Positions 36,438 through 49,830 of a stretch of 64,000 nt of DNA are shown here, piece after piece; position 1 is the stretch's first letter; each line of letters begins with the position of its first letter. Location of the stretch: contig CAWBOS010000010.1 in the NCBI GenBank assembly GCA_963790475.1, positions 1,568,001 to 1,632,000 on the forward strand, read 5' to 3'. This DNA is from an uncultured delta proteobacterium. Lineage in GTDB: Bacteria > Desulfobacterota > RBG-13-43-22. Under the pieces are notes generated by a model. That model made no database searches, had not been told where the DNA came from, and saw nothing but the letters and a program-made list of their open reading frames with translations. A program made the translations under genes and the position numbers.

Positions 36438-37409
36438 TCAGCCCGAAGGGTCATCTTTTCTTATGGGTTGCAATAGGTAATCGAGTCTTTCCTGGACGAT
36501 GGAATAAGGGTCCCTCTCTCTTCTTTCGATTTGCCGAACGGCCTTTTCCAGTCCTCCATCCTTCTCCCATTGATCCCTGATCAGACCGGTCAGCTGTTTT
36601 TCCAGCAACCCGATGAGTTCTTCTCTGATCCGCACCTCCTGCCAAACTCGTCGATGCCTCGAAGATTTCAAGAAATCCAAAACGGATTCGACTAATTCCG
36701 GCAGGCCCTTATTCTGATTGGCCACGGTTCGAAGGACCGGGGGTCGGTGATTGTCCTGGGCCGGATCCAGATCCAGCATAGCTTCAATATCCAGTATGAC
36801 CGCATCCGCACCTTCCCGATCGGCTTTGTTGACGATAAAGATATCGGCGATCTCCATGATCCCGGCCTTAAGTGCCTGGACTGCGTCCCCCTGGCCGGGA
36901 ACGCAGACGACCAGCACTAAATCGGCGGCTCGGACCACCTCTACTTCATCCTGTCCCACCCCGACGGTTTCAATGAGCACGAAATCTTTGCCGGAGGCAT
37001 CCAAAATCTTGGCCACATCCCGGGCCGATTGATTCAGGCCCCCCAAGGCGCCTCGGGTAGCCATGGAACGGATGAAGACCTCATCCAGATTCCAGAGGTC
37101 TTTCATACGGACCCGATCCCCCAGAAGAGAACCGCCGGAGAATGGACTCGAAGGATCCACGGCGATGATACCCACCTTGAAACCCCTGGAAACCAGCTCG
37201 CAGGCCATTCCGTTGGTCAGGGTGCTCTTCCCCGCTCCCGGTGACCCGGTGATTCCGATAAGCCGCGCTTTCCCGGACAAAGGGTATATTTGCTGCATGG
37301 CCTCCATCCAGCCGGGGTCCCGATTTTCAACCCGGCTCACCAACCGTGACAGGGCTCGAACGGATCCCTGCCGCATTTTTTCAATAAGTTCCGACCAATC
37401 GTTATTCAT
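36438..37409 (-). CDS. meaB: mutase-associated GTPase MeaB/ArgK
   Basis: GITGSPGAGKST, AVDPSSPFSGGSLLGDRVRM, IETVGVGQ, KAGIMEIAD..VNKAD. Confidence 0.93.
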   Translation of the reverse strand: MNNDWSELIEKMRQGSVRALSRLVSRVENRDPGWMEAMQQIYPLSGKARLIGITGSPGAGKSTLTNGMACELVSRGFKVGIIAVDPSSPFSGGSLLGDRVRMKDLWNLDEVFIRSMATRGALGGLNQSARDVAKILDASGKDFVLIETVGVGQDEVEVVRAADLVLVVCVPGQGDAVQALKAGIMEIADIFIVNKADREGADAVILDIEAMLDLDPAQDNHRPPVLRTVANQNKGLPELVESVLDFLKSSRHRRVWQEVRIREELIGLLEKQLTGLIRDQWEKDGGLEKAVRQIERRERDPYSIVQERLDYLLQPIRKDDPSG

Positions 37410-37467
37410 ATCTTAAAGCCTGATCATCAACAGGATGCACTCTCACCAAAAACGAAACCAACGGGTC

Positions 37468-37989
37468 TCAGATACAGTTTTGAGATAATTTCACTTGAGC
37501 AGCAATGAGCTCCTTCAGCACATTCATCAACCCGCCCTTTTCTATGATATGTAACATTTCTGTCGTGTAGAGTTGTCCCTGGAGTTCCTTGGTTCGAGTA
37601 AGATTGCGAATCTTAGCCGTCCTGAGATCCAGTTCCAGATCATCTCCCTCTTCAAAGGCGTTATGAATCCCCTGGCAGGCAATATTCGGAAAGGCAATGG
37701 CAATGGAGTTCCGCAAGTATATGCGTCCGAATGACTCGGCGATGACAGCCGCCAGACCCAATTCTTTTAAGTTCTCCGGGGCATTTTCCCGGCTCGACCC
37801 GCATCCCCAGTTACGACCGGCGACGATGATGTCACCGGGTCTTACCTGATCTGAAAACCCCTCTCGATTATGAAGGATAACCTTTTTCCGTTGCTCCCAG
37901 GGCAGACCGATAGAGTTCCAGGGGGCCATGACATCCGTGTCCACATCATGATCGAATTTCCAGACCTTGCCCCTAATAATCCAATCCAT
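37468..37989 (-). CDS. LeuD/HacB/DmdB-like hydratase small subunit
   Basis: DVDTD, G.NWGCGSSRE.A, IAESFGRIY.RN. Confidence 0.9.
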   Translation of the reverse strand: MDWIIRGKVWKFDHDVDTDVMAPWNSIGLPWEQRKKVILHNREGFSDQVRPGDIIVAGRNWGCGSSRENAPENLKELGLAAVIAESFGRIYLRNSIAIAFPNIACQGIHNAFEEGDDLELDLRTAKIRNLTRTKELQGQLYTTEMLHIIEKGGLMNVLKELIAAQVKLSQNCI

Positions 37990-38056
37990 AAAAACCCTCT
38001 TGCTGTTGTATTATAAATAATAGAGGTAATAAAACGAGCCCCATTCATTAATGGGA

Positions 38057-38203
38057 AACTCGTAAAAACTTGCCGAAATCAACATTAAGTCATTCCGGTC
38101 CCGCATCAAGTGCGGGATAGACTCCAGCCGGAATCCAGTGTCTTGAATTAGTAAAAACTTCTGGACCCCGGCTTTCGCCGGGGTGACGATTTTTACGAAG
38201 TCC
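38057..38203. repeat. GTCATTCCGG-type palindromic repeat, copy 2, with nested hairpin
   Basis: Same architecture as copy 1, plus TCCCGCATCAAGTGCGGGA insert. Confidence 0.85.
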
Positions 38204-38206
38204 TCA

Positions 38207-39502
38207 TTAATCCCGACATTCATGAAGATCCGTTCCCAACGTCGTTCCGCTCCAATACTTTCGTGGATCCGCGATACGGCCTTCAATAGCCGAAGCGGCC
38301 ACCGTGGCCGGAGATCCGAGGTAAACTTCGGACTCGGGTGACCCCATTCTTCCCCTGAAATTACGATTGGTGGAGGAGATGCAGACCTCTCCGGGACCGA
38401 TCAGCCCCATATGGCCTCCCGGGCAGGGGCCGCAGCCTGTGGGAGTAATATGCGCTCCCGCTTCCAGAAGTACCCGGATATAACCGGCCTTGTCGGCCTC
38501 AATAAGGACCTTGCGGGAAGCAGGGGTTACCAGAAGTCTGACCTTGGGGTTTACCTGATGACCCTTTAAAATTCCGGCCGCTACCTCCAGATCCTCCAGC
38601 CGGCCATTGGTGCATGAACCAAGAAAGGCCTGATCGATCAGGACATCCCCGATTTCCGAGACCGGTTTAGCGTTTCCGGGGTTGTGCGGGAGGGAAACCT
38701 GGGGTTCCACAGCGGTGATATCCAAGGTATAGCTCTCTTCATAAGAAGCATCGGGGTCAGGCCCGAATAGCGAAACCGGTTGGCGGGCCCGATCATGCAG
38801 GTAGTCGATCGTTTTTTGATCAGCCTCGAAAAAGGCAAACTTGGCCCCAATCTCCACACCCATATTGGACAGGGTCATCCGACTGGCAATGCTCATTTGG
38901 TTCGCCAGGGGTCCGCTGAATTCGATGGCTCGGTATTGGGCAACCTCGGTCCCGAACCGTCCGGCTATATAAAGCATCAGATCCTTGGACATCAAAGCCG
39001 GTCCAGGGGTACCGGTGAGCCGGAAACGAATCGTCGGTGGAACCCGCATCCACAATTCCCCCGTGGCCAGCACATAATTCATTTCAGTAACCCCGATCCC
39101 GGCACTGGCCGCGCCCAAGGCGCCGTAGGTGGTCGTGTGGGAATCCGTACCCAGGATCAATTGGCCCGGGATGACGAATCCCTCTTCGACCATGACCTGG
39201 TGACAGATCCCGGCAAAACCCAGGTAATGACGAATTTTGAACTCCTCGACCATCTGCCGGATAATGATCTGCCCTTGTGCCATTCTCACGGTGGGTGCCG
39301 GGAAATAGTGATCCACAATGACCACGACCCGCTCCGGGTCAAAGAGTTTCTTGACCCCCATCCCCTTAAGGGTCAGACCATTCATGGCAAAGGCGTCGTG
39401 GCACATCATCCGGTCAATGACGGCGGTCACGTACTGTCCCGCTTGAACCTCAGTCTGTCCGGAGGCCCTGGCCAGAACTTTCTCGGCCATAGTCATTCCC
39501 AT
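38207..39502 (-). CDS. LeuC/HacA/DmdA-like hydratase large subunit
   Basis: GICHQ, GTDSHT..YGA, GSCTNGR.EDL, GCGPC.G, STNRNF.GRMG. Confidence 0.92.
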   Translation of the reverse strand: MGMTMAEKVLARASGQTEVQAGQYVTAVIDRMMCHDAFAMNGLTLKGMGVKKLFDPERVVVIVDHYFPAPTVRMAQGQIIIRQMVEEFKIRHYLGFAGICHQVMVEEGFVIPGQLILGTDSHTTTYGALGAASAGIGVTEMNYVLATGELWMRVPPTIRFRLTGTPGPALMSKDLMLYIAGRFGTEVAQYRAIEFSGPLANQMSIASRMTLSNMGVEIGAKFAFFEADQKTIDYLHDRARQPVSLFGPDPDASYEESYTLDITAVEPQVSLPHNPGNAKPVSEIGDVLIDQAFLGSCTNGRLEDLEVAAGILKGHQVNPKVRLLVTPASRKVLIEADKAGYIRVLLEAGAHITPTGCGPCPGGHMGLIGPGEVCISSTNRNFRGRMGSPESEVYLGSPATVAASAIEGRIADPRKYWSGTTLGTDLHECRD

Positions 39503-39529
39503 AGGACGCCCTCCCCTTCTACTGAATTT

Positions 39530-39803
39530 CGCACCGGTTTATCCTTTCAAAATTCGAATACTTTTTTTAGACAGGATTTACCGGATTCCCCGGATTTTTG
39601 TGCCTTTCGACCTGTCTGCAAGCTAGCACGCAGACAAGCGGGGGGAAGAAAGGCACAAACTGAATCGTTCTCTGGACAGAAGCCTGAACTACCGCCAGAA
39701 GCGGATCGAAGTTGCTCAGGGTCCTCAGGAACCTGAGCAAAAGGCATGTAAATCCTGTTAATCCTGTCAGGTAAAGATTTTTCCCATAAGACAAAGCGTC
39801 GCA
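39530..39803 (-). mobile_element. ACAGGATT-armed MITE-like element, copy 1
   Basis: Inverted homolog of 59472-59710; contains extra CTGTCTGC...GCAGACA palindrome. Confidence 0.8.
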
Positions 39804-39830
39804 TAATTTCTTTTTTCATGGATCCCAACA

Positions 39831-40760
39831 TTAAGGTCGATAACCAACGGTCTCCCGGTATTTGCGTTGGACCTCTTCATCAGGCAGAAACAATTCTTCA
39901 TATTTTTTGATTTCCGGAAATCCGATAAATTGGTGAAAATTGCGAATCGGATGGTCCTTCAGTCCCCGGCCGAATTCCCTTAAAAATTCCGTGCCGCCGG
40001 ATTGAAGTCCGTGCATAAAATCCCACATGGCCCTGGCCGCGGCCACAAAAGCGCCTCCGGCGATCTCGACCATAGCGACGCCCAGGGCCTTGAGATCCGG
40101 CATAGGCAGCATAGGAGAAACGCCGGTCATATTGTATAAAATAGGGGCCCGGATTTCTTTGACGCTGCGTTCCAAATCTTCCACACTGGTCAGGCCATCA
40201 GGAAAGATCACATCCGCCCCGGCATCCCGATAGGCCCGACCTCGCCGGATCACCTCTTCCATACTTCCCCCTAACGCTCCCCGGGCATCGGTGCGGGCAA
40301 TCAGGACAAAATCAGGGTCAAGTTGACGGCGCACCTTATCAGCCGCTTTATATTTCCCAACGGCTTCTTCGATGGGAATCAATTGTTTCCCGGCTACGTA
40401 GCCACAGCGTTTCGGGGCGACCTGATCCTCCAGGTGGATGCCAGCTACACCCGCCTTGATGAATTCCTCCGTGGTGCGCATGACATTGATTGCGTTCCCA
40501 TATCCGGTGTCTGCATCACTGAAAACCGGGATATTCACCGCGCCGGCGATATTACGAGCGACACCTACCACTTCAGACATTGTCGTCAATCCCACATCGG
40601 GTTTTCCAATCAGAGAGGCCGAGACGCCATACCCGCTGATGGCCATCAACTTGAAACCCGCCTGTTCAATAATTTTAGCCGATAGGGCGTCATAAGCTGC
40701 GGGAGCGATGAGCAGTTCCTGGCCTGCTAATAATTCTCGAAATCTATGGCTTTGCTTCAT
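39831..40760 (-). CDS. isocitrate lyase/PEP mutase family C-C lyase (PrpB/Dml-like)
   Basis: YDALSAK, DADTGYG, EDQ..PKRCGY, IARTDA. Confidence 0.9.
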   Translation of the reverse strand: MKQSHRFRELLAGQELLIAPAAYDALSAKIIEQAGFKLMAISGYGVSASLIGKPDVGLTTMSEVVGVARNIAGAVNIPVFSDADTGYGNAINVMRTTEEFIKAGVAGIHLEDQVAPKRCGYVAGKQLIPIEEAVGKYKAADKVRRQLDPDFVLIARTDARGALGGSMEEVIRRGRAYRDAGADVIFPDGLTSVEDLERSVKEIRAPILYNMTGVSPMLPMPDLKALGVAMVEIAGGAFVAAARAMWDFMHGLQSGGTEFLREFGRGLKDHPIRNFHQFIGFPEIKKYEELFLPDEEVQRKYRETVGYRP

Positions 40761-40777
40761 GCCGGGGCCTTTCCTTA

Positions 40778-41965
40778 TTATATAATCTTCTCCTGCCGTA
40801 ACTGGTCCATATCTTCCTTCGAGTAACCCAAAAGCTGAGATAGAACCTCTTCCGTATTTTCCCCCATAACCGGAGGATAGGTGTATTTTGTTCTCAATTC
40901 CGATGGTGTCCCCGACATTTTGACGGGGTTCCCGGTTTGTTTGATCCGCCCGCCCGAACCGTTTTCAATAGTGGCCACCATGTCTGTGGCTGCTACCTGG
41001 GGATCGGCCAGGGCCTTGTCCAGGGTATTCACCGGCCCACAGGGCACATCGGCCTCGATGAGTATCCTCATCCACTCCTCGGTCCCTTTGGTGAGAAAAA
41101 TTTCCTGAAGGACTGAATTCCTCTTCCTTTTATTTTCAAGAGTGGATGGTCCGGTAAAGAGGGGCTCCTTAAGCAGGTCTTCCTGGCCCATGGCCTTAAA
41201 CAAACGGGGGTATTTGTCTCCCACGGCGGCAATGGTGATGTAGCCGTCCGCAGTCTGGAAGGCCTGATAAACCGGGAGAACGCGGTGCCCGGATCCTACC
41301 GGTCCCGGCACTTCACCGGAAGCGAAATAAATGCTGGCCTCATAAGCGAGCATGGCCAATGTGGCCTCAAAAAGGGAAGTCTCCACTTTTTGCCCTACTC
41401 CGGTGCGTTCCCGGGCATAAAGGGCGGCCAGGATACCATGAGCGGCAAACATTCCGGCACCCAGATCACTGACGGCGATTCCCGCCCTGACCGGGGGCCG
41501 GCCTTCCTCTCCGGTAATACTCATGGAGCCGGTGATGGCCTGAATGATCACGTCGTATGCCGGCCGGTCCCGATAGGGGCCGCTGGAGCCGAAGCCACTG
41601 ATCGAGCAACAGATAATCCGGGGGTTGATCTTCTGGAGGGTTTCATAATCCATTTTGAGCCTCTCCAGGACGCCGGGCCTGAAATTGTCAAAGACGACGT
41701 CCGATACCTTTACCAGATCATAGAAGATCTCCCTTCCCTTTTCCGTTCGGGTGTCCAGGGTGATGCTCTTCTTGCTGCGGTTGATGCTCATATTGTAGGC
41801 ATCCTGCCCTCTATAGGCAGTCGGTCCGCTGAACCCTCTATTAGCGGCCACGGCCTCTATCTTGATAATCTCCGCCCCCAGATCTCCCAAAATCATGGCA
41901 CCAAAGGGGCCGGCTAAGGCACGGGTTAAATCGAGAATTCTTACATTGGCTAATGCCGTTTCCAT
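40778..41965 (-). CDS. CaiB/BaiF family III CoA transferase
   Basis: LDLTRALAGP, LGAEIIKIE, NRSKKS, NFRPG, ISGFG.SGP...RPAYD. Confidence 0.93.
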   Translation of the reverse strand: METALANVRILDLTRALAGPFGAMILGDLGAEIIKIEAVAANRGFSGPTAYRGQDAYNMSINRSKKSITLDTRTEKGREIFYDLVKVSDVVFDNFRPGVLERLKMDYETLQKINPRIICCSISGFGSSGPYRDRPAYDVIIQAITGSMSITGEEGRPPVRAGIAVSDLGAGMFAAHGILAALYARERTGVGQKVETSLFEATLAMLAYEASIYFASGEVPGPVGSGHRVLPVYQAFQTADGYITIAAVGDKYPRLFKAMGQEDLLKEPLFTGPSTLENKRKRNSVLQEIFLTKGTEEWMRILIEADVPCGPVNTLDKALADPQVAATDMVATIENGSGGRIKQTGNPVKMSGTPSELRTKYTYPPVMGENTEEVLSQLLGYSKEDMDQLRQEKII

Positions 41966-42118: not shown

Positions 42119-43462
42119 CTACAGGGACTCTATGAAATCTTTCATACTCTTCCTGTCTTCGAGGATGAGGATGGCCTTCATCACTTCTTCGGACTGCTTC
42201 CGGCCTAAGACAGGAACACATAAATCCATGAATTTGGCTTGCACTTTTTTCCTTTTCGTTTCCAGCTCGGGGATTTCATTCATGATGTCATTAAAACCCT
42301 GAAGCCTTTTGCCTGAAAGAGTCTCAACCTCCACCTTGGCCGCTAAGCCCAAGATGCTCGAATCCGGCACGGCCACAATGGATATCTTTTCCATCAAAGA
42401 CTTTATCTGAGGGTCATTGACCTTTTCATCCGTAAAGGCCTGCATGCCCGTGTCTCCTCTTAAAAGGGCATTGGCCACACAATAATAAATACTAAACTTT
42501 CCTTCCAGACCGGTTTTCGGCGTCTTTTTTCCGGCAATATTAATGGCCGTCTGGGTGGTGTGGATGATTATGGATTTAATATCCGGAACAGTTAAATGGT
42601 CCTTGGTTACCATATTAAGCACCGCCTCGATAGCTGAATGAGTTCCGTGGCAGGAAGCATGATATTTCTGGGCCAATTTCTCCGTATCCCAGGTTTTCCC
42701 CAGCGAATCAACGGCTTTTGGGTTCACCCTGCCCTTTAAAAGCTGGAAAAATCCGTCCGGCCCTTCCAGGATATCTTCGGCGGAAGTAAATCCCTCACTC
42801 CCCAGCAAAACCGATTCCAATCCTACCTGGGAGGCCTTTCCGGCATGATAGGGCTTGCACATGGTGCCGAATACCCTCTTTAACCCGGCGGCCTGGGTCC
42901 CGGCAATGCCCAGGGCGTAAACCGTCTGTTGTTCATTTAAGCCCAACAATCGGGCACAGCCGGCGGCCGAAGCCAGACGACCGATGGTCGATGTTCCATG
43001 CCATCCAGCCCCATAATGTTCTAACCCGGCACAGGCCCCGATAACCGCCCCGGCTTTAAGGCCGATAATGTAAGCCGATAAGAATTCGAACCCGCTTTTC
43101 TCCTTCCATTCGGAAAGGGCCAGCAAGGCCGGAAACAAGGTCACCGAAGGATGGCCCTGGAACTGGGCCATGGTATCGTCATAATCCAGGGCATGAGACA
43201 TGGCCCCATTGATCAGGGCCGCCTGGCTGACATTGGTTCTCTGTCCATGGCCCAGGATAGTCGCCTGGGCATTGCCGCCCATGAGGCTGTTATAATGGAG
43301 GAGCTTCAGCACCAGAGGCTCATCCTTTCCGGCCATCAGGACGGCGAACCAGTCCAGAAAGGCGACCTTGGCCTGTTCATAGCATTCCCGAGGAATGGAC
43401 GAAAGGTCGGCTTGGGTGATCAACCGGGCGATGGTTCTGGTCAATCCTAAAGTTGTTTCCAT
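42119..43462 (-). CDS. MmgE/PrpD family protein
   Basis: NG..SHALDYDD, GHPS, GWH.TST, GTMCKP.HAG, KYHASCH.TH, KFS..Y. Confidence 0.93.
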   Translation of the reverse strand: METTLGLTRTIARLITQADLSSIPRECYEQAKVAFLDWFAVLMAGKDEPLVLKLLHYNSLMGGNAQATILGHGQRTNVSQAALINGAMSHALDYDDTMAQFQGHPSVTLFPALLALSEWKEKSGFEFLSAYIIGLKAGAVIGACAGLEHYGAGWHGTSTIGRLASAAGCARLLGLNEQQTVYALGIAGTQAAGLKRVFGTMCKPYHAGKASQVGLESVLLGSEGFTSAEDILEGPDGFFQLLKGRVNPKAVDSLGKTWDTEKLAQKYHASCHGTHSAIEAVLNMVTKDHLTVPDIKSIIIHTTQTAINIAGKKTPKTGLEGKFSIYYCVANALLRGDTGMQAFTDEKVNDPQIKSLMEKISIVAVPDSSILGLAAKVEVETLSGKRLQGFNDIMNEIPELETKRKKVQAKFMDLCVPVLGRKQSEEVMKAILILEDRKSMKDFIESL

Positions 43463-43547: not shown

Positions 43548-44345
43548 TTATTTCCCTTTGAATTCCGGTTTTCGTTTTTGCATAAAGGCCTTCTGGGCTT
43601 CCTTGAGATCTTCGCTGTTAAAGGCCTGGGCGATAATTCCATTCGCCTCCCGGCGGTCTTCATCTGACAGGGTGATCGATTTAGACAACAGGTTCAAGAT
43701 GCGTTTCGTCCCTTTGACCGATAAAGGGGCATTGCCGGCAATTTCGCGAGCCATTTCATAGGCAAAGCTCTCCACTTCCTGTCGGGGCAGGAGATAATCC
43801 ACCAGGCCCATTTCCTTGGCCCTTTGGGCCGGATAATAACGACCGGTAAAAAATATTTCTCTGGTATTGGAAATTCCGATCACCTGGATGAAGCGCGTCA
43901 GACCGGAAAGCTGGTATACTAAACCCAGTTTGGCCGGGGGCATCCCCATCCGGATATCGTCGGCGCCGATCCGCAGGTCACAGCAGACGGCCAATTCGCA
44001 GCCGGCACCGAAGGCATAGCCATTTAACAGGGCTATAACCGGATAGGGAAAGTTGATGATGCTCTTGAGGGCCAGGTCCAGGGGGTTTTGATCTCTTAAT
44101 TTTTCCCTGGTTCGGGGTGAGACCTCGGTCGGAATAGCGGCAATATCGTATCCTGAGGAAAAGGCCTGATCACCGATACCCCGGACAACCAACGCTCTTA
44201 TGGCATCCTCCCGGGCGAAATCCTCCAGGGTCTGATGAATCCTGATCAACAGATCCGGAGAAAGGGAATTGCGCTTTTCGGGACGATTGAAGATCATGGT
44301 TGCCACCCGGTCTTTTTTTTCAATTAATAAAATATCTGTGCTCAC
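43548..44345 (-). CDS. enoyl-CoA hydratase/isomerase (crotonase family)
   Basis: NRPEKRN, AFSSGYDI, PVIALLNGYAFGAGCELA..CDLR, MPPAKLG. Confidence 0.92.
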   Translation of the reverse strand: MSTDILLIEKKDRVATMIFNRPEKRNSLSPDLLIRIHQTLEDFAREDAIRALVVRGIGDQAFSSGYDIAAIPTEVSPRTREKLRDQNPLDLALKSIINFPYPVIALLNGYAFGAGCELAVCCDLRIGADDIRMGMPPAKLGLVYQLSGLTRFIQVIGISNTREIFFTGRYYPAQRAKEMGLVDYLLPRQEVESFAYEMAREIAGNAPLSVKGTKRILNLLSKSITLSDEDRREANGIIAQAFNSEDLKEAQKAFMQKRKPEFKGK

Positions 44346-44503: not shown

Positions 44504-44507
44504 TTTT

Positions 44508-44912
44508 TTATCCGTTGATCCGGACATGTTTCTTGATAGACTCGACCACCTGATTAATACTGGTTCCGGAAGTAAAAATTTCTTTTACCCCTAATTCCTT
44601 TAAGGCCGGGATATCCTCATCAGGAATCAACCCGCCTACCAGCAGGACCACATCATCGGCCCCCTGGGCCTTTAACCCCTCGGCCACTCGGCGGGTCAGG
44701 GCCAGGTGGGCCCCGGAGAGGATGGAAAGCCCTACTACGTCCACATCCTCCTGGATGGCTGCCCGGACAATGGAATCGGTGGTCTGTCGCAGCCCGGAAT
44801 AGATCACTTCAAAACCGGCGTCGCGCAAAGAATAGGCGATTACTTTGGCCCCTCGGTCGTGGCCATCCAATCCTGGCTTGGCCACCAGGACTCTGATTTT
44901 CTTTTCGGTCAT
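44508..44912 (-). CDS. cobalamin-binding small subunit of acyl-CoA mutase
   Basis: [12 protein letters not shown] (DxHxxG), [14 protein letters not shown]. Confidence 0.95.
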
Positions 44913-44940
44913 CGTTGTTCTCCTTCAATCGTAATAGTTC

Positions 44941-45231
44941 AGCCACCAAGTCACTAAGCAACAAAGACCTGCGGGTCTGCAGGCAATAATTCTCTTGATC
45001 CCATTTTTAATGATAGGTTATCGGAATATCGACTTGCCTTTGGTATTTCAATTCTCGCTTGGATAGTTCATGACAAAAACAGACCTCATAGACCCTCTCA
45101 AGCAAACCCGGTCCTAATGTTTTATGTACTGTATAGGCAGCGTCCACAATTTTTTCAGCAATAAATTCTTCTCTTTCTGATAAGGGTTTAAACATCATAT
45201 CCATTCTTTGCGCCTTCGTGTCTTAGTGGCT
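44941..45231 (-). mobile_element. inverted-repeat-flanked GxxExxY cassette, internally deleted
   Basis: 27-bp imperfect IRs AGCCACCAAGTCACTAAGCAACAAAGA / TCTTTGCGCCTTCGTGTCTTAGTGGCT. Confidence 0.7.
44980..45204 (-). pseudogene. GxxExxY protein remnant
   Basis: VHKTLGPGLLERVYE...IPITY joined out of frame to C-terminal IKNGIKRII. Confidence 0.85.
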
Positions 45232-45241
45232 GAGGGTACCT

Positions 45242-47062
45242 TCAATCAAAAATAGGGTCACATTCAATCAAACCCACCGGAATACCGGTCACACGTTCAA
45301 TATCTTTATAGACTCGGCCGCTCAAATCCCTTCCCCATCCGCTCATATGGAAAGGAGAGGATGGAATGACCACCAGATCAGGCGACACCAGGCCCTCCCT
45401 TAAAAAATCTTTTACAGCGAAGATAAAATCTTCGACCATTAATAAATCACCCATAAAAATATTTCCCCCCAGGCACCGGTTGGGGGGAACACGCAGATGG
45501 AGCTTAATCTCGGCCGGAAAAGGGGTTTCTCTGATCCTTTTTTCCAGCGTGGGCCTAACCAGGGTGGAGGTTAGAATGAGGATCTCCCGGGCCTGTACCT
45601 TTAGAATCAGGTTTCTTAATCGTCCTGTCCAATCCAAGGGAATCCCGGAGGATGGAAAAACGCACCCGGCGTAGGGAACTATTTTAGGATCAAAAGGATA
45701 GGCAAAGTTGTTTAATTCCAGGGACAGATCGTCCGGCCCGTCCGGTCGGGCAACGGTCACCGAGACCCTTTCCAACAGGCTGCTCTGGACCAATCCCAGG
45801 AGGGAAAGGGCTTGGGGCCGGGTTTTGATCGGAAGGCCGTTGATAGCATTCAATCGATCGCCCATTCTCAGACCGGCTCCGGCTGCCGGAGAATTCTTGA
45901 TCACCCCGATCAGCCGAGGGGTGTCTACAGCCTCCGGGTCGAGATATTCTTCAAACAGGCCAGGCCGGATGATCAAAGGACAATCGGTCAGGGATCGAAG
46001 ATGTTGGATCTCGTCCTTCACTCGATTCCAGACCTCTTCCCGATCAAAAAGGGTCTCCTTGGAAAACAGCCCTGAGTACCCCGGCAAACTAATTTGAATA
46101 AAGGCCGGGTTGAATTGGGCCGAAAAGGCCACGGTATGGACCAGGTCCTCCACCATTTCTTCAACGGAAGGAAAAGGCCAGGGGACAATGACCACCGAAT
46201 AAGGGATGAGCGCCGATTGGAGGGCCGCCGGAGCACTTAAAGCCGTTTCCGGGTGAAGGTCTCTCATCAGCCAGCGTCGTCGGCTGGCAGAACTGCTGTT
46301 CAAAGAGATATCGACAAACAAAGGCCGGAATTGCGCCAGGGCGGTTATGATCGCCGGGGTGAGTTGCGCGCCGTTAGTCGGGATGCGCAGGACCTCAGCG
46401 GTTTTTTTACGAAGGGCGGCCAGGATCTCCAGGATATGGGGATGGGTCAGCATCTCACAGGGACTACCCACGTCCGGGAAAAAACCCATCTTAGATCCGG
46501 GCACATAACAGGTGATGCGGGCCAGAATTTCCTGAAATTCTTCCTCGGCACTGCCGGGGTTTTCTTGAAAGGCCGGGGGGCTGCCGAGGTTATAACAAAA
46601 AAGGCACCTGAGATTGCAGCGGGTGGCAGCCTGGGCCAGGATGTCGGAGGCCCCGCCTCCTGGTCTCAGCCATCGGGCTGGTTTTCTTAAACGAAAACCG
46701 TCAATCTGAACTGGCTCATTATGGAACTCAAATTCGACTACCGACAAGAGCGATTCTATTAATTTTCGGATGTAGGTCAGGCGTGGCTCATAGATATCCA
46801 GACGATTATCGGACCGGCGGAAATCGCAGGTTTCATCAATAAAAAGTGGATGAACCAAATCGGGTCCGCCAAGAGACCGGTATCCATCGATGCGGACCTC
46901 TTCCCCTTTCCAGGTGGGAGTTAGCAGGTCCAGGAGGGCGCGAAGGTGCCGGCCCGGCAGGTCAATCAGGTTCAACCGGGCCGCATACGAGTTGTCATCA
47001 ATGGGGTATCGGAAGAGATATTCTTTGTCTTCGTCGGGCGTCCGGCCTCGATTTAATTCCAT
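45242..47062 (-). CDS. radical SAM protein with PDZ and DUF512-like domains
   Basis: CNLRCLFC, TNG..LT, ISLNS, GV..NSPA..AGL..GD.L..ING (PDZ), N..LGGNI..GDLL...D. Confidence 0.85.
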   Translation of the reverse strand: MELNRGRTPDEDKEYLFRYPIDDNSYAARLNLIDLPGRHLRALLDLLTPTWKGEEVRIDGYRSLGGPDLVHPLFIDETCDFRRSDNRLDIYEPRLTYIRKLIESLLSVVEFEFHNEPVQIDGFRLRKPARWLRPGGGASDILAQAATRCNLRCLFCYNLGSPPAFQENPGSAEEEFQEILARITCYVPGSKMGFFPDVGSPCEMLTHPHILEILAALRKKTAEVLRIPTNGAQLTPAIITALAQFRPLFVDISLNSSSASRRRWLMRDLHPETALSAPAALQSALIPYSVVIVPWPFPSVEEMVEDLVHTVAFSAQFNPAFIQISLPGYSGLFSKETLFDREEVWNRVKDEIQHLRSLTDCPLIIRPGLFEEYLDPEAVDTPRLIGVIKNSPAAGAGLRMGDRLNAINGLPIKTRPQALSLLGLVQSSLLERVSVTVARPDGPDDLSLELNNFAYPFDPKIVPYAGCVFPSSGIPLDWTGRLRNLILKVQAREILILTSTLVRPTLEKRIRETPFPAEIKLHLRVPPNRCLGGNIFMGDLLMVEDFIFAVKDFLREGLVSPDLVVIPSSPFHMSGWGRDLSGRVYKDIERVTGIPVGLIECDPIFD

Positions 47063-47072
47063 CTTGAAATCC

Positions 47073-48818
47073 TTAAAATATGGAGGGGGGATCATATTCT
47101 CCGAAAACATCTCTGAATACGTCACAGACCTCTTGCAAAGAAACATAAGCCTTGGCGCAGGCGATCAGATGAGGCACCAGGTTCATATCTTTCTGCCCCG
47201 CCTGTTCTTTTAATTCAGCCAACAGCTTTTGCACCTCCTGGTTGTTCCGGTTCTTTTTAACCTCCTTCAAGTTGGCAATCTGCCTTTCTTCGGCCCGGGC
47301 ACGGCGGTCGGGATCATAGGGGTGCGGGACCAGGCGGGTGGTCTGCACTTCGAGTTCATGTTCGCCGGTAAAACAGTTCACCCCCACCACCAGAGTCTCT
47401 CCGCTGGCTATTTTTTTCTGGTGTTCATAGGCGCTTCGCGTTACTTCCCGCTGCACGTAGCCTTGCTCGATGGCCGTCACGATACCGCCCATTTTATCCA
47501 ATTTTTCCAGCTCGGCCCAGGCCTCTTTTTCAATCGCATCGGTAAGGGATTCGATACAATAGGAACCGGCAAAGGGATCTTCAACTTCCAGCAGTTTGGC
47601 TTCACAGGTCAGGATGCGGCTGACGTCCTGGGATAATTGCTGGGCCTCCCTGCTCCAACCCAATCCAAGGGGTTCATCGTAAGGAGGGAAAGCCGAGGGA
47701 GGTCCTCCGGACATGGCCCCGGCCACCGCCCCGAGAACGGCCCGAGTCAGGTTATTGAGGGGACGTTGTTTGGTGGTACTGGAGGGACCGATGTGGGCGG
47801 TCATATTCATTCTAAGCAGCATGCTTCGGGGGTTCTTGGCTCCAAAGCGTTCCTTGAGGAGGCGGGCATACATGCGCCGGGAAGCCCGTTGAAAGGCGAT
47901 TTCCTGCAGGAACTCCATACTGCCGCCCATGGCATTAAAGGTAAAACGAGGGGCAAAGACATCCACGTCCAAACCGGCATTAATCCCTTCTTGCAGATAG
48001 GCAGAGGCGATGGCCATACTATAGGCCAGATCCTGTGTACGCGAGGCCCCTGCCTCCCGGATATGATACCCTCCCATGCTGGTGATATTCATACGGGGCA
48101 TATATTGGTTGGCAAAAACCAGGATATCTCTAAAGAGTCGCATGGCCGGCTTGGGGGGAAAGATATAGGCCCCGCGGGCGATATATTCCTTCAGAATATC
48201 ATTCTGAGGGGTGGCCTGTAATTTTTCCGGGGAAATGCCCCGGTTTTCAGCCAAAGCGGCGTACATGGCGATTAAATAAATGGCCGGACCATTGATGGTA
48301 AAATTAGAGGCGATGCGGTCCAGATCGAGCTCTCCCTGATACGGTTCATAAATGATTTCCATGTCACGGAGGGTGTCTATGGCCACTCCGACTTTGCCCA
48401 CTTCACCGGCCATTAGAGGGTTATCCGAGTCATACCCGCACTGGGTTACAAGATCCATAGCCAAGTTTGGGCCTTGCCTACCTCCCCGTGAAATATTCTG
48501 TTTATAATAATCCCTCGTGTCCTCTGGCGTTCCATATCCGGAATAGCCGGAGGCGCGGGTCAAACCGGAACCTGACGGGGCCCTGGCGGCCATCTTGGCG
48601 GTACCGGCTCTGGGATCAAAAGGATAAACGCTCGCCGTAAACGGATATTCTCCCGGAAAGCTCACTTGGGTCAGGAAATCAAAGTCCGGAGTATCCAGGG
48701 GGGTATAAAAACGGCTGGGGGCCTCTTTCAAATAAGGAAAACGCTCTAAGGCTTTCTTTACCGTTTTTTCCTGCCAAACCTGCCTTCTTTGACGTATCTT
48801 TTCATACTGGTCGCTCAT
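47073..48818 (-). CDS. divergent B12-dependent acyl-CoA mutase large subunit
   Basis: FPGEYPFT, DL.TQ.GYDSD, GEVGKVGVAIDT..DM, QNDILKEYIARG, GYHIREAGA, DP.AGSY..ESLT, VGVN.F. Confidence 0.9.
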   Translation of the reverse strand: MSDQYEKIRQRRQVWQEKTVKKALERFPYLKEAPSRFYTPLDTPDFDFLTQVSFPGEYPFTASVYPFDPRAGTAKMAARAPSGSGLTRASGYSGYGTPEDTRDYYKQNISRGGRQGPNLAMDLVTQCGYDSDNPLMAGEVGKVGVAIDTLRDMEIIYEPYQGELDLDRIASNFTINGPAIYLIAMYAALAENRGISPEKLQATPQNDILKEYIARGAYIFPPKPAMRLFRDILVFANQYMPRMNITSMGGYHIREAGASRTQDLAYSMAIASAYLQEGINAGLDVDVFAPRFTFNAMGGSMEFLQEIAFQRASRRMYARLLKERFGAKNPRSMLLRMNMTAHIGPSSTTKQRPLNNLTRAVLGAVAGAMSGGPPSAFPPYDEPLGLGWSREAQQLSQDVSRILTCEAKLLEVEDPFAGSYCIESLTDAIEKEAWAELEKLDKMGGIVTAIEQGYVQREVTRSAYEHQKKIASGETLVVGVNCFTGEHELEVQTTRLVPHPYDPDRRARAEERQIANLKEVKKNRNNQEVQKLLAELKEQAGQKDMNLVPHLIACAKAYVSLQEVCDVFRDVFGEYDPPSIF

Positions 48819-48854
48819 GGCCTTCCCTCCAAATTAAAATACTTGAACTGCAGT

Positions 48855-48975
48855 TTAGGTATACGGTGTAAGGTTTAAGGTATAAGGTATAAGGTTCAGG
48901 TTCAGGTTCAAAGTTCAAAGTTCAAAGTTTAAGATTCAAGATCTTTACCTTATACCTCATACCTTGTACCATGCC
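48855..48975. repeat. heptamer-armed palindrome
   Basis: AGGTATA/AGGTTCA/AAGTTCA tandem units facing TACCTTA/TACCTCA units. Confidence 0.75.
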
Positions 48976-48978
48976 GTC

Positions 48979-49716
48979 TTATGCATTGCCCCTTACTAAT
49001 TCGGCAACCCCTTTATAGGCATCTCCCGGGAAAAAAGTGATCGCCATCTCTAAGGCCCTACCGAACCTCGAAAAATAAACGCGTTTGATAACCAGAAGCG
49101 GATGTCCTTTTTTGACCTTCAGGATGGAGGCCAAATTTTTATCAGTCACCGAGGCGTAGGTGATCTGCCGGCTTCGCTTTACCGTCTCCAGGGATTCTTT
49201 CTCGACTCTCTCGATAAAAAGCGGGCGATCCGGATCGGTTATCTTTATGTTTTCCCCTATTTCTTCGGGGACATAGGCCTGAAAAAAGGCCTGGCGTTCA
49301 TTAATCAGATGCCGTAGTCCTTCGAAGAGATAAACTTTTTCCCCTGAGTTCAGCATCATATCCTGAATTATCTGGGGAGAAGGGTTGATCAATTTTTTCG
49401 AATGAAGTTTTAAAGTAGTCTGGACGCCGAGATCAAAAAGATCATCGACTGTTCCATAGAGCTTAAACTGGAAGTTGTTGTTTTTACGAAAAGAGACGAA
49501 GGTACCCCGCCCCTGTTCCCGGCGAATAAGGTTGTCACTTTCAAGAGACAAGAGGGCCTGTCTAACGGTTATTCGGCTGACCCCGAACTCCTGACACAAT
49601 TCTTTTTCAGTAGGAACGGCCTGATCGGACTTGAGTTTGCCGGAAAGGATTCCTTTTCGGAGGACCTTTTCCAGTTGATGGTACAGAGGAATGGGGGTTT
49701 TTTTTAATTTTATCAC
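48979..49716 (-). CDS. GntR (HutC/UTRA) family regulator
   Basis: PLYHQL, PTEKEL..EFGVSRITVRQAL, R.QGRGTFV; UTRA-like C-terminus. Confidence 0.92.
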   Translation of the reverse strand: MIKLKKTPIPLYHQLEKVLRKGILSGKLKSDQAVPTEKELCQEFGVSRITVRQALLSLESDNLIRREQGRGTFVSFRKNNNFQFKLYGTVDDLFDLGVQTTLKLHSKKLINPSPQIIQDMMLNSGEKVYLFEGLRHLINERQAFFQAYVPEEIGENIKITDPDRPLFIERVEKESLETVKRSRQITYASVTDKNLASILKVKKGHPLLVIKRVYFSRFGRALEMAITFFPGDAYKGVAELVRGNA

Positions 49717-49801
49717 AACCTCTTTCCTTTGGGGTGACGATGGCGGGTAAACCCGCTACCTATGGGAAAGGTTCTTGGCCCTCTTAATTCCGGTGGAAGA
49801 A

Positions 49802-49830
49802 AGGTTATAATGTCATAACAAATATGTCAA
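49802..49830 (-). promoter_or_regulatory. operon promoter with overlapping GntR-type operator
   Basis: Minus strand TTGACA-17-TAACCT; palindrome GTTAT-N6-ATAAC at 49804-49819. Confidence 0.6.

Follow-up and report, generated by a model that had tools for sequence, protein, structure and literature searches.

A cobalamin-dependent mutase operon with a radical SAM partner, resembling a free-standing alkylsuccinate rearrangement gene set

Introduction

Two genome papers list a set of mutase, ArgK/MeaB, MmgE/PrpD and enoyl-CoA hydratase genes beside the alkylsuccinate synthase genes of anaerobic alkane degraders, and present this 'ass island' set, by name the mutase, as the candidate for carbon-skeleton rearrangement (PMC7180275, PMC13685792). 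The core of the operon described here also matches the overall logic of scpA-argK-scpB-scpC from E. coli and of the IaaL/IaaGH phenylsuccinyl-CoA route (PMC8360864). The ass island of alkane degraders carries the alkane-activating enzyme; this operon lacks it and has a cobalamin-binding radical SAM protein. Mmp10 is the sole functionally known member of the structural class to which this protein belongs, and it modifies a protein (PMC11659888); B12-dependent radical SAM enzymes act on unactivated carbons (PMC12931638).

The operon resembles a free-standing version of that little-studied set of genes for alkylsuccinate rearrangement and decarboxylation. The functions assigned to the ass island are putative, so this likening rests on another inference. 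The word 'undescribed', applied to the operon in a sequence-only reading of the same DNA, is too strong, since the mutase-ArgK/MeaB-MmgE/PrpD-enoyl-CoA hydratase set is already in print. We found no description in the literature of the module without MasD, nor of a DUF512/Mmp10-type B12 radical SAM protein that accompanies this subclade of mutases.

Gene organization and conservation

The window, the whole stretch of 64,000 nucleotides analysed, contains an eleven-gene unit at 36438-49716, entirely co-oriented on the minus strand (ORF list, Pfam and NCBIfam); all eleven genes of the sequence-only reading are confirmed. In unit order, with the intervening repeats, the features are:

48979..49716, minus: gntR, first gene; GntR/HutC-type regulator, GntR HTH and UTRA effector domain (Pfam GntR 71 bits, UTRA 62 bits)
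47073..48818, minus: acyl-CoA mutase large (substrate-binding) subunit, radical SAM-associated subclade B of the 'ass-island' mutase clade (PF01642 457 bits)
45242..47146, minus: class II (DUF512/Mmp10-type) B12-binding radical SAM protein; N-terminal domain, radical SAM core, PDZ, DUF512 (Pfam Radical_SAM 34 bits, PDZ_6 33 bits; CX3CX2C motif)
44508..44912, minus: mutase small subunit, B12-binding domain, DxHxxG base-off/His-on motif (PF02310 86 bits, TIGR00640 168 bits)
43548..44345, minus: crotonase-fold enzyme with methylmalonyl-CoA-decarboxylase-like active-site residues; proposed (alkyl)malonyl-CoA decarboxylase (NF008506 200.8 bits)
42119..43462, minus: MmgE/PrpD-family protein, iminodisuccinate (IDS)-epimerase/IRG1 branch; putative epimerase of a substituted succinate (PDB matches)
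40778..41965, minus: family III CoA-transferase, dicarboxylate type; proposed activator of a substituted succinate (PF02515 407 bits)
39831..40760, minus: ICL/PEP-mutase-family C-C lyase, KRCGY loop with lyase-type Cys; accessory insertion (Pfam PEP_mutase/ICL)
39503..39830, no strand: dispersed intergenic repeat (spurious 'orf94') between lyase and leuC (blastn)
38207..39502, minus: LeuC/HacA-family hydro-lyase large subunit; accessory insertion (NF001614 541 bits)
37990..38206, no strand: dispersed intergenic repeat between leuC and leuD (blastn)
37468..37989, minus: LeuD/DmdB-family small subunit; accessory insertion (TIGR02087 140 bits, cut-off 109)
36438..37409, minus: MeaB/ArgK G-protein chaperone of the mutase (PF03308 272 bits; TIGR00750 297.5 bits, above cut-off)

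Orthologues of gntR (61-81% identity) lie upstream of the mutase in same-genus loci, and no transporter gene is found within the operon. As had been noted for methylmalonyl-CoA epimerase, the operon ORFs include no glyoxalase-type epimerase (Pfam, NCBIfam); as a sign of a role other than standard propionate metabolism this absence counts for little, since scpA-argK-scpB-scpC of E. coli has none either.

The conserved core consists of mutase, MeaB and PrpD-like protein, together with crotonase and CoA-transferase. It is kept across families and in one Actinomycetota MAG, which supports this part of the sequence-only reading. Its genes are homologous (54-70% identity) to genes that neighbour the alkylsuccinate synthase MasD/AssA in further families within the phylum. 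In six loci (G083, G241, G040, G321, G322 and G297), mutS-mutL and a PrpD-like gene (53-59% identical to that of the window) occur beside a glycyl-radical activase. As a rule meaB is there too, though it was not seen in the G241 locus, and five of the six have the large glycyl radical subunit, which was not seen in that of G322. Such a subunit, from locus L059, scores 1485 bits against the solved MasD (PDB 9o8u). Among 401 genomes sampled from the phylum, 40 carry the mutase clade (E<=1e-150) and 15 a MasD-like glycyl radical enzyme (at least 69% identity); the clade is present in 14 of these 15, the exception, G004, being 66% complete. No MasD is present in the source genome (100% complete by markers, 9.7% contamination), where the best glycyl radical enzyme shows 32% identity and most resembles glycerol dehydratase. 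A MasD-like match is also missing from all 11 sampled genomes of the genus, this one included, so that no source of an alkylsuccinate is evident.

The mutase

The operon mutase has the methylmalonyl-CoA-mutase (MCM) fold but is not a canonical enzyme of that group. The large subunit matches HcmA (336 bits) and human MCM (318 bits) best in the PDB. It shares with E. coli ScpA the Tyr ('YSGYGT'), Arg ('ARGAYIF') and Tyr-His ('GGYHIREAG') positions, while the pocket differs in other motifs: 'THCQTSG' gives way to 'AHIGPSS' and two inserted residues, and 'SLHTNAFDEAL' to 'SAFPPYDEPL'. Both replacements are conserved from the source phylum through Actinomycetota. In the small subunit D16, H18 and G21 are invariant (14 orthologues). 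The genome has four PF01642 genes, including separate MCM-like and ICM-like paralogues, and the operon mutase is the most divergent of them; the MCM-like gene has its own small subunit. The earlier proposal of a non-standard enzyme of this fold is thus borne out, and that of CoA activation agrees with the CoA-transferase context of the mutase. The chaperone gene directly follows the CoA-transferase gene in two other genomes (G105 and G286).

In a FastTree phylogeny of 35 sequences (a topology without support values), subclade B, which holds the operon mutase and is radical SAM-associated, is sister to the MasD-adjacent subclade A. The substrate of the operon mutase could differ from that of subclade A.

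The radical SAM protein

The class of this protein was assigned from Pfam, homologue lengths, an AF2 model, Foldseek and VIA-align. It likely starts at Met29 (47062), which gives 606 aa and places the start 11 nt past the mutase stop; Cys149, Cys153 and Cys156 are invariant in 45 sequences. It occurs in 27 of the 401 genomes, 23 of which also have the mutase clade, the remaining 4 having cut contigs. Its gene adjoins mutS in the Actinomycetota locus and in three families (f1, f25 and f46); in family f37 about 7 kb separates the two. It is absent from 17 of the 40 mutase-clade genomes and therefore is no general requirement of the clade; it is a lineage-specific partner of the operon's mutase subclade. 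A mutase-directed role, in post-translational modification or cofactor handling, is tentatively favoured, at somewhat less than even chances; a radical step on the substrate itself seems doubtful.

Crotonase, PrpD-like protein and CoA-transferase

The sequence-only reading placed the crotonase in the degradation of an unknown branched di- or tricarboxylate. Its residues resemble those of E. coli methylmalonyl-CoA decarboxylase (ScpB, 32% identity) more than those of a hydratase or isomerase, although it scores below the NCBIfam decarboxylase cut-off (NF008506: 200.8 versus 257 bits). ScpB has His66 where the operon enzyme has Tyr66; Glu113 and Tyr140 correspond to Glu117 and Tyr144, and the second catalytic Glu is absent. 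The pattern recurs in 6 correctly framed orthologues, and three paralogous crotonases of the same clusters have different residues at the ScpB-aligned positions.

The MmgE/PrpD protein, previously taken for a PrpD-family isomerase or dehydratase, is closest to IDS epimerase (184 bits) and B. subtilis IRG1 (174 bits), not to PrpD (28-44 bits); CAD scores about 100 (PDB matches). Copies 53-59% identical adjoin the mutase in MasD loci. IDS epimerase, its nearest solved relative, acts on a substituted succinate, and from this relative alone an epimerase role is proposed. The CoA-transferase scores 268 bits against formyl-CoA transferase, 245 against SUGCT, 150 against a benzylsuccinate CoA-transferase subunit and 110 against AMACR (PDB), and 283 and 267 bits against the succinate-glutarate and succinyl-CoA:mesaconate families (NCBIfam), all far below cut-offs. 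It could also be an AMACR-type racemase.

The LeuCD-lyase insertion

Seen in only two genomes, the hydratase of LeuCD type and the lyase of the ICL family form a later, accessory insertion. Close copies of the lyase (89%) and LeuC (88%) are present in one (G384) of the five other same-genus genomes searched; G105 and G031 have no lyase match at E<=1e-20, and the operon loci retrieved for other families or phyla contain no close copy of either. The lyase scores 184 bits against methylisocitrate lyase and 161 against both petal death protein and dimethylmalate lyase, and LeuC scores 403 bits against the M. jannaschii isopropylmalate/citramalate isomerase and 342 against homoaconitase (PDB). As a side branch, these enzymes probably split a 2-hydroxy-dicarboxylate akin to methylisocitrate, citramalate or dimethylmalate.

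Proposed pathway and alternatives

We consider it probable that the conserved core, as a free-standing relative of the AssA/MasD accessory genes, encodes a CoA-dependent pathway in which a substituted succinate loses one carboxyl group. All steps are inferred from homology and gene context. The CoA-transferase would form an X-succinyl-CoA thioester, and the PrpD-like protein would fix the stereochemistry of the succinyl centre. The adenosylcobalamin mutase of two subunits, which MeaB would load and guard, would then shift the carbon of the thioester, and the resulting product of the X-methylmalonyl-CoA type would be decarboxylated by the ScpB-like crotonase to a branched acyl-CoA for beta-oxidation. 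The unit would be controlled by the GntR/HutC regulator. Against this pathway stand the missing MasD, the lack of a transporter gene in the operon, the subclade B position of the mutase, the sub-cut-off score and Tyr66 of the crotonase, and the racemase alternative for the CoA-transferase. Because the genome lacks MasD/AssA, the substrate may be an alkylsuccinate that is imported, or else a different substituted succinate, for example methylsuccinate.

The last possibility leads to a specific form of this pathway, the catabolism of C5 branched dicarboxylates, which we regard as unlikely. Methylsuccinate (or itaconate/mesaconate after reduction) would be activated by the CoA-transferase, rearranged as by ethylmalonyl-CoA mutase and decarboxylated to butyryl-CoA, and LeuCD and lyase would convert citraconate via citramalate to pyruvate and acetate. 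The dicarboxylate transferases nearest to the CoA-transferase, the IRG1/cis-aconitate-decarboxylase and IDS-epimerase branch of the PrpD-like protein, the isopropylmalate/citramalate isomerase nearest to LeuC, and the f37 and f46 clusters, with their additional crotonases and NMO-family (enoyl-reductase-like) genes, are all in its favour. However, the transferase scores fall far short of their cut-offs, the mutase comparison set includes no ethylmalonyl-CoA mutase sequence, most operons lack LeuCD and lyase, and the sister subclade adjoins MasD, which makes long-chain, not C5, succinates. It could also be imagined that the radical SAM protein is itself a pathway enzyme in the glycyl radical enzyme's place, for instance forming, epimerising or methylating a substituted succinate. 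Radical SAM and MasD genomes have nearly disjoint distributions (MasD in 3 of 27, radical SAM in 3 of 15) and a common downstream module, their mutases form the sister subclades, and unactivated carbons are within reach of such enzymes. This is nevertheless very unlikely: the Actinomycetota locus (L005) has both proteins, three f46 genomes have both at the genome-wide level, Mmp10 acts on a protein, the PDZ domain is usually a peptide-binding module, and SAM consumption would, by reasoning, be costly for a catabolic route.

Two further readings give LeuCD and lyase a central role. The sequence-only reading proposed a CoA-dependent variant of lower nicotinate fermentation, from 2-methyleneglutaryl-CoA via 3-methylitaconyl-CoA, dimethylmaleate and dimethylmalate to propionate and pyruvate, with the crotonase or PrpD-like protein as isomerase, LeuCD as DmdAB and the lyase as Dml. 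LeuD does pass the LeuD/DmdB family model, the lyase matches the solved 2,3-dimethylmalate lyase, the remodelled mutase pocket could fit a longer acid, and one f37 cluster has a 3-hydroxyisobutyrate-dehydrogenase-family gene. Of the co-occurrence that was to be looked for by gene neighbourhood, the core with the mutase is conserved across families, but LeuCD and lyase, on which the nicotinate logic depends, lie outside the conserved unit. Moreover, this route needs no decarboxylase, which the crotonase resembles, the lyase scores higher against methylisocitrate lyase, and upstream nicotinate genes were not seen in the window's flanks (Pfam, NCBIfam), all of which makes it highly improbable. 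Little probability is also given to an Sbm-type succinate-to-propionate route fused with a methylcitrate-cycle segment, in which a divergent MCM, the crotonase as ScpB and the CoA-transferase in place of ScpC would be joined by PrpD-like protein, LeuCD and lyase handling methylcitrate, methylaconitate and methylisocitrate. The E. coli-like gene logic, the closeness of the lyase to methylisocitrate lyase and the MCM-type Tyr, Arg and His agree with this route. Against it, a canonical MCM-like gene, accompanied by a small subunit of its own, is already present in the genome, the replaced pocket motifs are conserved in ScpA and in the MCM-like and ICM-like paralogues, the PrpD-like protein scores just 28-44 bits against 2-methylcitrate dehydratases versus 184 against IDS epimerase, and the combined reactions would, by reasoning, form a futile cycle from oxaloacetate to pyruvate and CO2.

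Intergenic repeats

A 94-codon ORF at 39547-39831 ('orf94') was rejected as a gene: it belongs to no protein family in Pfam or NCBIfam, and blastn identifies a dispersed repeat, with 24 further matches in the genome at 73-91% identity (wider query 39490-39840). The repeat between leuC and leuD has 95 further genome matches by blastn.

Organization of the operon

Judged by its gene content, the operon appears to be a self-contained module under a GntR regulator, equipped with a CoA-transferase and a predicted ScpB-like decarboxylase and joined to a putative class II B12 radical SAM protein. ORF calling, Pfam and NCBIfam place 11 minus-strand ORFs of one orientation at 36438-49716. The sequence-only reading had described an eleven-gene co-oriented unit, and this is borne out by all 11 ORFs and their family matches:

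48979-49716, minus strand, gntR, regulator with GntR and UTRA domains
47073-48818, minus strand, mutase large subunit (PF01642, 457 bits; TIGR00641, 484 bits; MCM equivalog, 403 bits against a cut-off of 876)
45242-47146, minus strand, radical SAM-PDZ protein (Radical_SAM, PDZ)
44508-44912, minus strand, B12-binding small subunit (PF02310)
43548-44345, minus strand, crotonase (ECH_1)
42119-43462, minus strand, MmgE/PrpD (N- and C-terminal MmgE_PrpD domains)
40778-41965, minus strand, family III CoA-transferase (PF02515)
39831-40760, minus strand, PEP-mutase/ICL-family lyase (PEP_mutase, ICL)
38207-39502, minus strand, LeuC-like (Aconitase family)
37468-37989, minus strand, LeuD-like (Aconitase_C; LeuD/DmdB family model)
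36438-37409, minus strand, MeaB (PF03308)

The ORF of the radical SAM protein (rSAM) shares 74 nt with that of the mutase large subunit (mutL). Gene calls of rSAM homologues are 27 residues shorter than the window ORF, and the alignments of distant homologues begin at residue 29 at the earliest and mostly at about 37 or beyond. Therefore, the true start is probably Met29 at 47062. A 94-codon 'orf94' between the lyase gene and leuC was rejected as a gene, being one copy of a dispersed repeat. Short dispersed repeats are present in the gaps 37990-38206, 39503-39830, 44346-44507 and 48819-48978, with 95, 22, 21 and 10 further genome matches, respectively (blastn). They look like REP or MITE elements, and the lyase/LeuCD insertion is interleaved with two of them.

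Directly downstream of meaB, at 32121-35886 on the minus strand, are genes for an NMT1/SsuA-like solute-binding protein and a HAMP-PAS-HisKA_3 histidine kinase, a pair that does not adjoin the operon in the related loci examined. On the plus strand, the pyruvate,phosphate dikinase gene (51514-54322) is split over two frames: the ORF 51514-53610 ends early, and the ORF 53528-54322 corresponds, at 88% identity, to residues 676-927 of an orthologue that is intact (928 aa) in a related locus (L004). Either a frameshift or an assembly error accounts for the split.

Conserved core and accessory cassette

The search for related loci gave four MAG loci of the same lineage and one from Actinomycetota. 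In two of them, L003 and L004, tblastn reveals the order gntR-mutL-rSAM-mutS-crotonase-PrpD-CoA-transferase-meaB (mutS, the mutase small subunit), without lyase or LeuCD. In the Actinomycetota locus, mutL-rSAM-mutS is accompanied by an AMP ligase gene, a PrpD-like gene and a crotonase that shares 46% identity with the window's (tblastn). Among the fetched regions, lyase-LeuCD between the CoA-transferase and meaB recurs only in the genome G384, and when five same-genus genomes were searched in full, G384 was again the only one with a close lyase (89%) and LeuC (88%). No lyase match is present at E<=1e-20 in G105 (85% complete) and G031 (97%), G286 and G138 have only 41-57% paralogues, and no close copy of lyase or LeuC is contained in the fetched operon loci of other families or phyla. 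The LeuCD-like hydratase and the lyase are thus an accessory insertion, carried in two genomes.

This has consequences for the analogy with lower nicotinate fermentation in Eubacterium barkeri, which uses Mgm, Mii, DmdAB and Dml. Compared by description, the likeness lies in a B12 rearrangement followed by a LeuCD-type hydratase, for which the LeuD/DmdB model is passed, and an ICL-family lyase. The window mutase is, in contrast, of the acyl-CoA type, hydratase and lyase have not been conserved alongside it, and there is no PrpF-type isomerase. With hydratase and lyase being accessory, the analogy is deprived of its main support. The nicotinate-type logic that the sequence-only reading saw in these genes is therefore not supported: they are not kept together with the mutase, close copies having been found in one of five other same-genus genomes searched. 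The same holds for the conservation of the whole set; the core around mutase and rSAM recurs across families and in Actinomycetota, but the full eleven-gene set does not, lyase and LeuCD being missing from most loci.

As to the accessory proteins themselves, the nearest relative of LeuC is the isopropylmalate/citramalate isomerase of M. jannaschii. The lyase carries the Cys of the lyase-type loop and scores 184 bits to methylisocitrate lyase, 164 to carboxyvinyl-carboxyphosphonate phosphorylmutase and 161 to petal death protein and dimethylmalate lyase. The G384 leuC orthologue (contig C46:381238-382508) matches as two pieces that overlap but differ in frame; it may be a pseudogene or reflect a sequencing error. 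The source genome has a paralogous leuC-leuD-lyase cassette (56%, 52% and 43% identity) at 8387-11358 of locus L054 (contig C12:1108000-1127999), neighboured by two family III CoA-transferases, two crotonases, a thiolase and an AMP ligase. The leuC-leuD-lyase set is a recurring hydratase-lyase cassette of CoA-ester catabolic clusters.

The mutase and its partners

In comparison to E. coli ScpA, the mutase keeps the Tyr in 'xYSGYGT' (ScpA 'QYAGFST'), the Arg in 'ARGAYIF' ('CRNTYIY') and the Tyr-His in 'GGYHIREAG'. We take these to be the carboxylate-binding and catalytic residues of methylmalonyl-CoA mutase (MCM), that is, Tyr89, Arg207 and His244 in P. shermanii. Other stretches are remodelled: 'PRFTFNAMGG' has a one-residue insertion, 'AHIGPSSTT' stands at ScpA 'THCQTSGWSLT' with a two-residue insertion, and 'SAFPPYDEPLG' stands at ScpA 'SLHTNAFDEALG'. 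These features occur in every clade member examined, the Actinomycetota copy included, in a reading that left out the locus L043 where its ORF is cut. Together, these sequence features fit a dicarboxylyl-CoA substrate in an altered pocket. The earlier proposal of an MCM-fold enzyme other than canonical MCM stands, as the score against NF006944 lies below its cut-off (403 against 876 bits) and the 'THCQTSG' and 'SLHTNAFDEAL' motifs are replaced. The small subunit has the DxHxxG motif.

The best PDB match of the mutase is HcmA (336 bits). A 2-hydroxyisobutyryl-CoA mutase presumably has Ile and Asp in place of the Tyr and Arg environment of MCM. This identity was rejected, since the Ile and Gln of HcmA align to Tyr92 and Arg in the window protein, which is MCM-like at these positions.

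A FastTree phylogeny of 35 large subunits, built without sequences of ECM, HCM, IaaGH, DmdAB and the strains AK-01, HxN1 and ALDC, groups the mutases adjacent to MasD, the alkylsuccinate synthase, in one subclade (A), sister to a subclade of rSAM-associated mutases (B) that includes the window's. A third paralogue of the source genome falls outside A and B, and E. coli ScpA as well as the MCM-like and ICM-like paralogues are more distant still. The window mutase is 54-61% identical to mutases beside MasD-like genes and shares with them a clade from which the MCM-like and ICM-like paralogues are separate. Of the phylogenetic placement envisaged earlier, the separation from these paralogues and from ScpA is thereby obtained, for a tree of 35 large subunits that covers neither ECM nor HCM.

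Several other mutase genes were seen. A third member of the clade in the source genome (53% identity; 9737-11560 of L053, C12:132000-151999) has no adjoining small subunit and is neighboured by a SIR2-family gene and two MaoC/hot-dog dehydratase genes. Clusters of family f46 have a second, very divergent large subunit (33-34% identity; L040 15972-17633, L042 3037-4632, L038 270-1760) with its own small subunit and with 'LVSGAMG' and 'NNSHSCNWF' at the MCM Tyr and Arg motifs. At L040 4962-8620, and also in L042, L046 and L038, the large subunit is duplicated in tandem, with about 60% identity to the window's; one copy has Ala for the Tyr of the Tyr-His motif, which suggests, by sequence, a catalytic/non-catalytic pair.

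The crotonase shares 32% identity with E. coli ScpB. In this protein and in six orthologues read in the correct frame, Tyr stands at ScpB His66, Glu at Glu113 and Tyr at Tyr140, 'MPPAKLG' is present and a second catalytic Glu is lacking; the L005 row was not taken into account. Three paralogous crotonases of the same clusters differ at the ScpB-equivalent positions. We take His66 and Tyr140 to be the active-site pair of ScpB; their positions were checked on the E. coli sequence. The NCBIfam methylmalonyl-CoA decarboxylase score is 200.8 bits, below the cut-off of 257. On these few residues, the crotonase is a plausible ScpB-like decarboxylase.

Among solved structures, the PrpD-like protein scores highest with iminodisuccinate (IDS) epimerase (184 bits), followed by B. 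subtilis IRG1 (174), cis-aconitate decarboxylases (about 100) and 2-methylcitrate dehydratases (28-44). Its nearest solved relatives make it a plausible IDS-epimerase-like epimerase. A 2-methylcitrate dehydratase was rejected on 60.6 bits against the NF006943 cut-off of 575, and on 28-44 bits to PDB PrpD/MmgE proteins versus 184. The CoA-transferase scores 268 bits to formyl-CoA transferase, 245 to SUGCT, 150 to a benzylsuccinate CoA-transferase subunit and 110 to AMACR.

Relation to the ass island and proposed pathway

The core, consisting of mutase, MeaB, PrpD-like protein, crotonase and CoA-transferase, has a counterpart in the accessory genes beside the glycyl radical enzyme AssA/MasD in anaerobic alkane degraders. 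[quoted passage not shown] Copies in MasD loci resemble those of the window, with PrpD-like proteins at 53-59% and MeaB at 50-60% identity, and one MasD-type locus (L062) has a crotonase 49% identical to the window's. As far as the available texts go, the ass cluster 1 of D. alkanexedens lists large and small methylmalonyl-CoA mutase subunits, a 'LAO/AO transport system' ATPase and MmgE/PrpD (PMC7180275), MmgE/PrpD and ArgK/MeaB are both listed at ass loci (PMC7180275, PMC13685792), and the mutase is named as candidate for carbon-skeleton rearrangement (PMC13685792). There, too, a substituted succinyl-CoA is proposed to be rearranged and then to lose CO2. Because this gene set is already in print at ass loci, the core is a known genomic module with an inferred function, and the operon cannot be called undescribed as it had been. 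The literature searches turned up neither the pairing of the core with a B12 radical SAM protein nor its occurrence as a free-standing unit. In the available text of the Smithellaceae paper, 'Radical SAM' and 'DUF512' have 0 occurrences (PMC13685792), and that of the ALDC paper does not mention the added DUF512 radical SAM either (PMC7180275).

There are also differences. The ass island has AssA/MasD and its activase, while the source genome and its genus are without either. For CoA activation, the window operon has a family III CoA-transferase instead of an AssK-type ligase; for decarboxylation, an ScpB-like candidate instead of a carboxyl transferase; for regulation, GntR instead of a sigma-54/PAS protein. 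Its mutase belongs to the sister subclade of the MasD-adjacent mutases. The operon resembles a compact, regulator-linked version of the ass gene set without the glycyl radical enzyme.

From the homology, gene linkage and residue patterns observed, we infer each reaction, its substrate and its direction. The family III CoA-transferase would transfer CoA to a substituted succinate, the product would be epimerised, a B12 rearrangement guarded by MeaB would follow, and decarboxylation would yield a branched acyl-CoA. By analogy, this order would match those of the scpA-argK-scpB-scpC and IaaL/IaaGH routes, transferred to a substituted succinate. The E. coli scpA-argK-scpB-scpC operon ('sleeping beauty mutase', succinate to propionate) has the same four parts: B12 mutase, G-protein chaperone, crotonase-fold decarboxylase and CoA-transferase. 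The window crotonase has Glu113 and Tyr140 in common with ScpB and lacks the second Glu; the mutase, at 34% identity to ScpA, has two subunits and a remodelled pocket, the family III CoA-transferase is not ScpC-like, and the PrpD-like and radical SAM proteins are extra. In indoleacetate degradation by Aromatoleum aromaticum (IaaL/IaaGH/IaaF), a family III CoA-transferase activates an aryl-substituted succinate, and an MCM-like mutase converts phenylsuccinyl-CoA to benzylmalonyl-CoA before decarboxylation, according to the portion of PMC8360864 available. This likeness is by description and not by mutase sequences, and the Iaa decarboxylation is described there as catalysed by an acyl-CoA dehydrogenase, of which the window operon has none.

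Against a substituted-succinate CoA pathway, it must be considered that the function of the reference ass-island module is itself inferred and its activity on (1-methylalkyl)succinyl-CoA putative; in the text available, ligase, mutase, decarboxylase and racemase are all termed 'putative' (PMC6776118). With respect to the origin of the substrate, the genus is without MasD and the operon without a transporter. Furthermore, the specificity of subclade B may differ from that of subclade A. Of the sequence-only interpretation, the non-canonical mutase, the CoA-transferase context and the conserved core are retained, while the role of lyase and LeuCD, like the nicotinate analogy, is not supported. 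In anaerobic alkane degradation, epimerisation, carbon-skeleton rearrangement and decarboxylation after fumarate addition are, in the accessible texts, assigned to 'putative' genes only (PMC6776118, PMC7180275, PMC13685792). Since the operon is a compact set with a plausible decarboxylase and a plausible epimerase, the chemistry of the substituted-succinate pathway is directly testable in a heterologous host.

Distribution of rSAM and MasD

Co-occurrence was counted in 401 genomes sampled from the phylum. Of these, 27 genomes from four families have the rSAM protein, and 40 have the mutase clade (E<=1e-150), 23 of them with rSAM and 17 without it. A MasD-like enzyme (at least 69% identity) is found in 15 genomes, 14 of them with the mutase clade. 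Only three genomes have both rSAM and MasD, 20 of the 40 mutase-bearing genomes have rSAM without MasD, and six have neither. Thus, rSAM and MasD are nearly mutually exclusive across the 401 genomes, and the downstream module is common to both. Every adequately assembled rSAM genome has the mutase, a one-way dependence. In the fetched regions, rSAM adjoins mutS and mutL in families f1, f25 and f46 and lies about 7 kb from mutS-mutL in f37, surrounded by CoA-transferase, crotonase and PrpD-like genes.

Ten mutase-clade loci were fetched, nine from rSAM-less genomes and one from G233, where rSAM is on another contig. Eight have mutS and mutL, and eight a PrpD-like gene (seven at 53-59% identity to the window's); meaB is also present in five, a glycyl-radical activase in six and a large glycyl radical subunit in five. 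Sigma-54/PAS regulators occur in all four scanned loci with glycyl-radical genes. The large subunit of L059 scores 1485 bits to MasD (9o8u, a 1-methylalkylsuccinate synthase subunit) versus 518 to benzylsuccinate synthase. The Actinomycetota locus has rSAM plus a MasD-like gene at 61% identity. No MasD-like match at E<=1e-150 was obtained in the source genome or 10 other same-genus genomes sampled; the best glycyl radical enzyme of the source genome is 32% identical and closest to glycerol dehydratase. With rSAM but no MasD in 20 of the 40 mutase-bearing genomes, the module is widespread in genomes unable to activate alkanes themselves, which hints at alkylsuccinate cross-feeding or at a wider class of substituted succinates.

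A glycerol-dehydratase-like glycyl radical enzyme, its activase and a crotonase of the source genome lie near SAVED, SMODS, ThiF and JAB genes in a row, a CBASS-like defence set (L066 14150-19201; contig C10, about 838-843 kb).

The radical SAM protein

Pfam does not detect DUF512 in the window rSAM protein, even at E<=10, and PF04459 is in the precomputed annotation of 10 among the 120 homologues listed. The CX3CX2C cysteines are invariant in an alignment of 45 sequences that drew on 44 of these 120, picked to span 40-84% identity. With the AF2 model from 45 sequences (mean pLDDT 84.7), Foldseek retrieves the solved DUF512 proteins 9cg1 and 9cg2 first and Mmp10 ninth to eleventh, behind SuiB and SkfB chains. 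VIA-align gives 22.1, 311 and 3.5 Å against pfDUF512 (9cg2), 19.8, 321 and 3.6 Å against Mmp10 (7qbs), and 17.8, 333 and 4.9 Å against csDUF512 (9cg1), versus at most 16.9 and about 210 against generic radical SAM cores. With a CX3CX2C core and a C-terminal DUF512 fold in the model, rSAM is predicted to be a class II B12-dependent radical SAM (Mmp10/DUF512) protein.

According to the available parts of PMC11659888 and PMC12931638, the DUF512 domain binds cobalamin, the target of methylation by Mmp10 is an arginine of methyl-coenzyme M reductase, and bacterial DUF512 radical SAM proteins have solved structures without an assigned function. In comparison to Mmp10 and the C. sporogenes and P. furiosus DUF512 proteins, rSAM has an extra N-terminal domain of about 135 residues. 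Its order is N-terminal domain, radical SAM core, PDZ and DUF512, whereas the PDZ of csDUF512 is, in the text accessible, N-terminal. Cobalamin binding is predicted, and unlike these proteins rSAM stands in the context of a B12 mutase. No literature link between a DUF512 radical SAM protein and an acyl-CoA mutase was found: the available text of the structural paper never mentions 'mutase' (PMC11659888), and that of the review draws no radical SAM-mutase link (PMC12931638). The association of DUF512 with one adenosylcobalamin mutase subclade is a concrete lead on function.

A role directed at the mutase is our favoured guess, based on the one-way dependence on the mutase, the adjacency to mutS, the PDZ domain and the only functional relative, Mmp10, which modifies a protein. 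One possibility suggested by the link to the mutase subclade is that a B12 mutase is matured or serviced by a B12 radical SAM enzyme. A radical role at the substrate level stays in view because the distributions of rSAM and MasD are nearly exclusive. It could be imagined that rSAM replaces the glycyl radical alkylsuccinate synthase, as a GRE-independent enzyme forming or reshaping a substituted succinate, for instance through C-alkylation or through addition of a radical to fumarate. We consider this very improbable and keep it in play because rSAM and MasD are nearly exclusive in 401 genomes and yet share the same downstream module; if true, anaerobic catabolism of the fumarate-addition type would have a second way in that has gone unrecognised. 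A complex prediction of rSAM with the mutase small subunit scored 0.00 in a run without controls and has no weight either way. The idea of a PDZ ligand at the mutase was set aside, as the C-termini of the large subunits are hydrophobic in both subclades and hence not discriminating. A function of rSAM as the only adenosylating enzyme was also rejected, since the source genome, in which no PduO-type adenosyltransferase was found, has one of the CobA type. A CobA-type gene lies directly upstream of an ICM-like mutase (Phe/Gln signature) and its small subunit, at C10:789253-791927.
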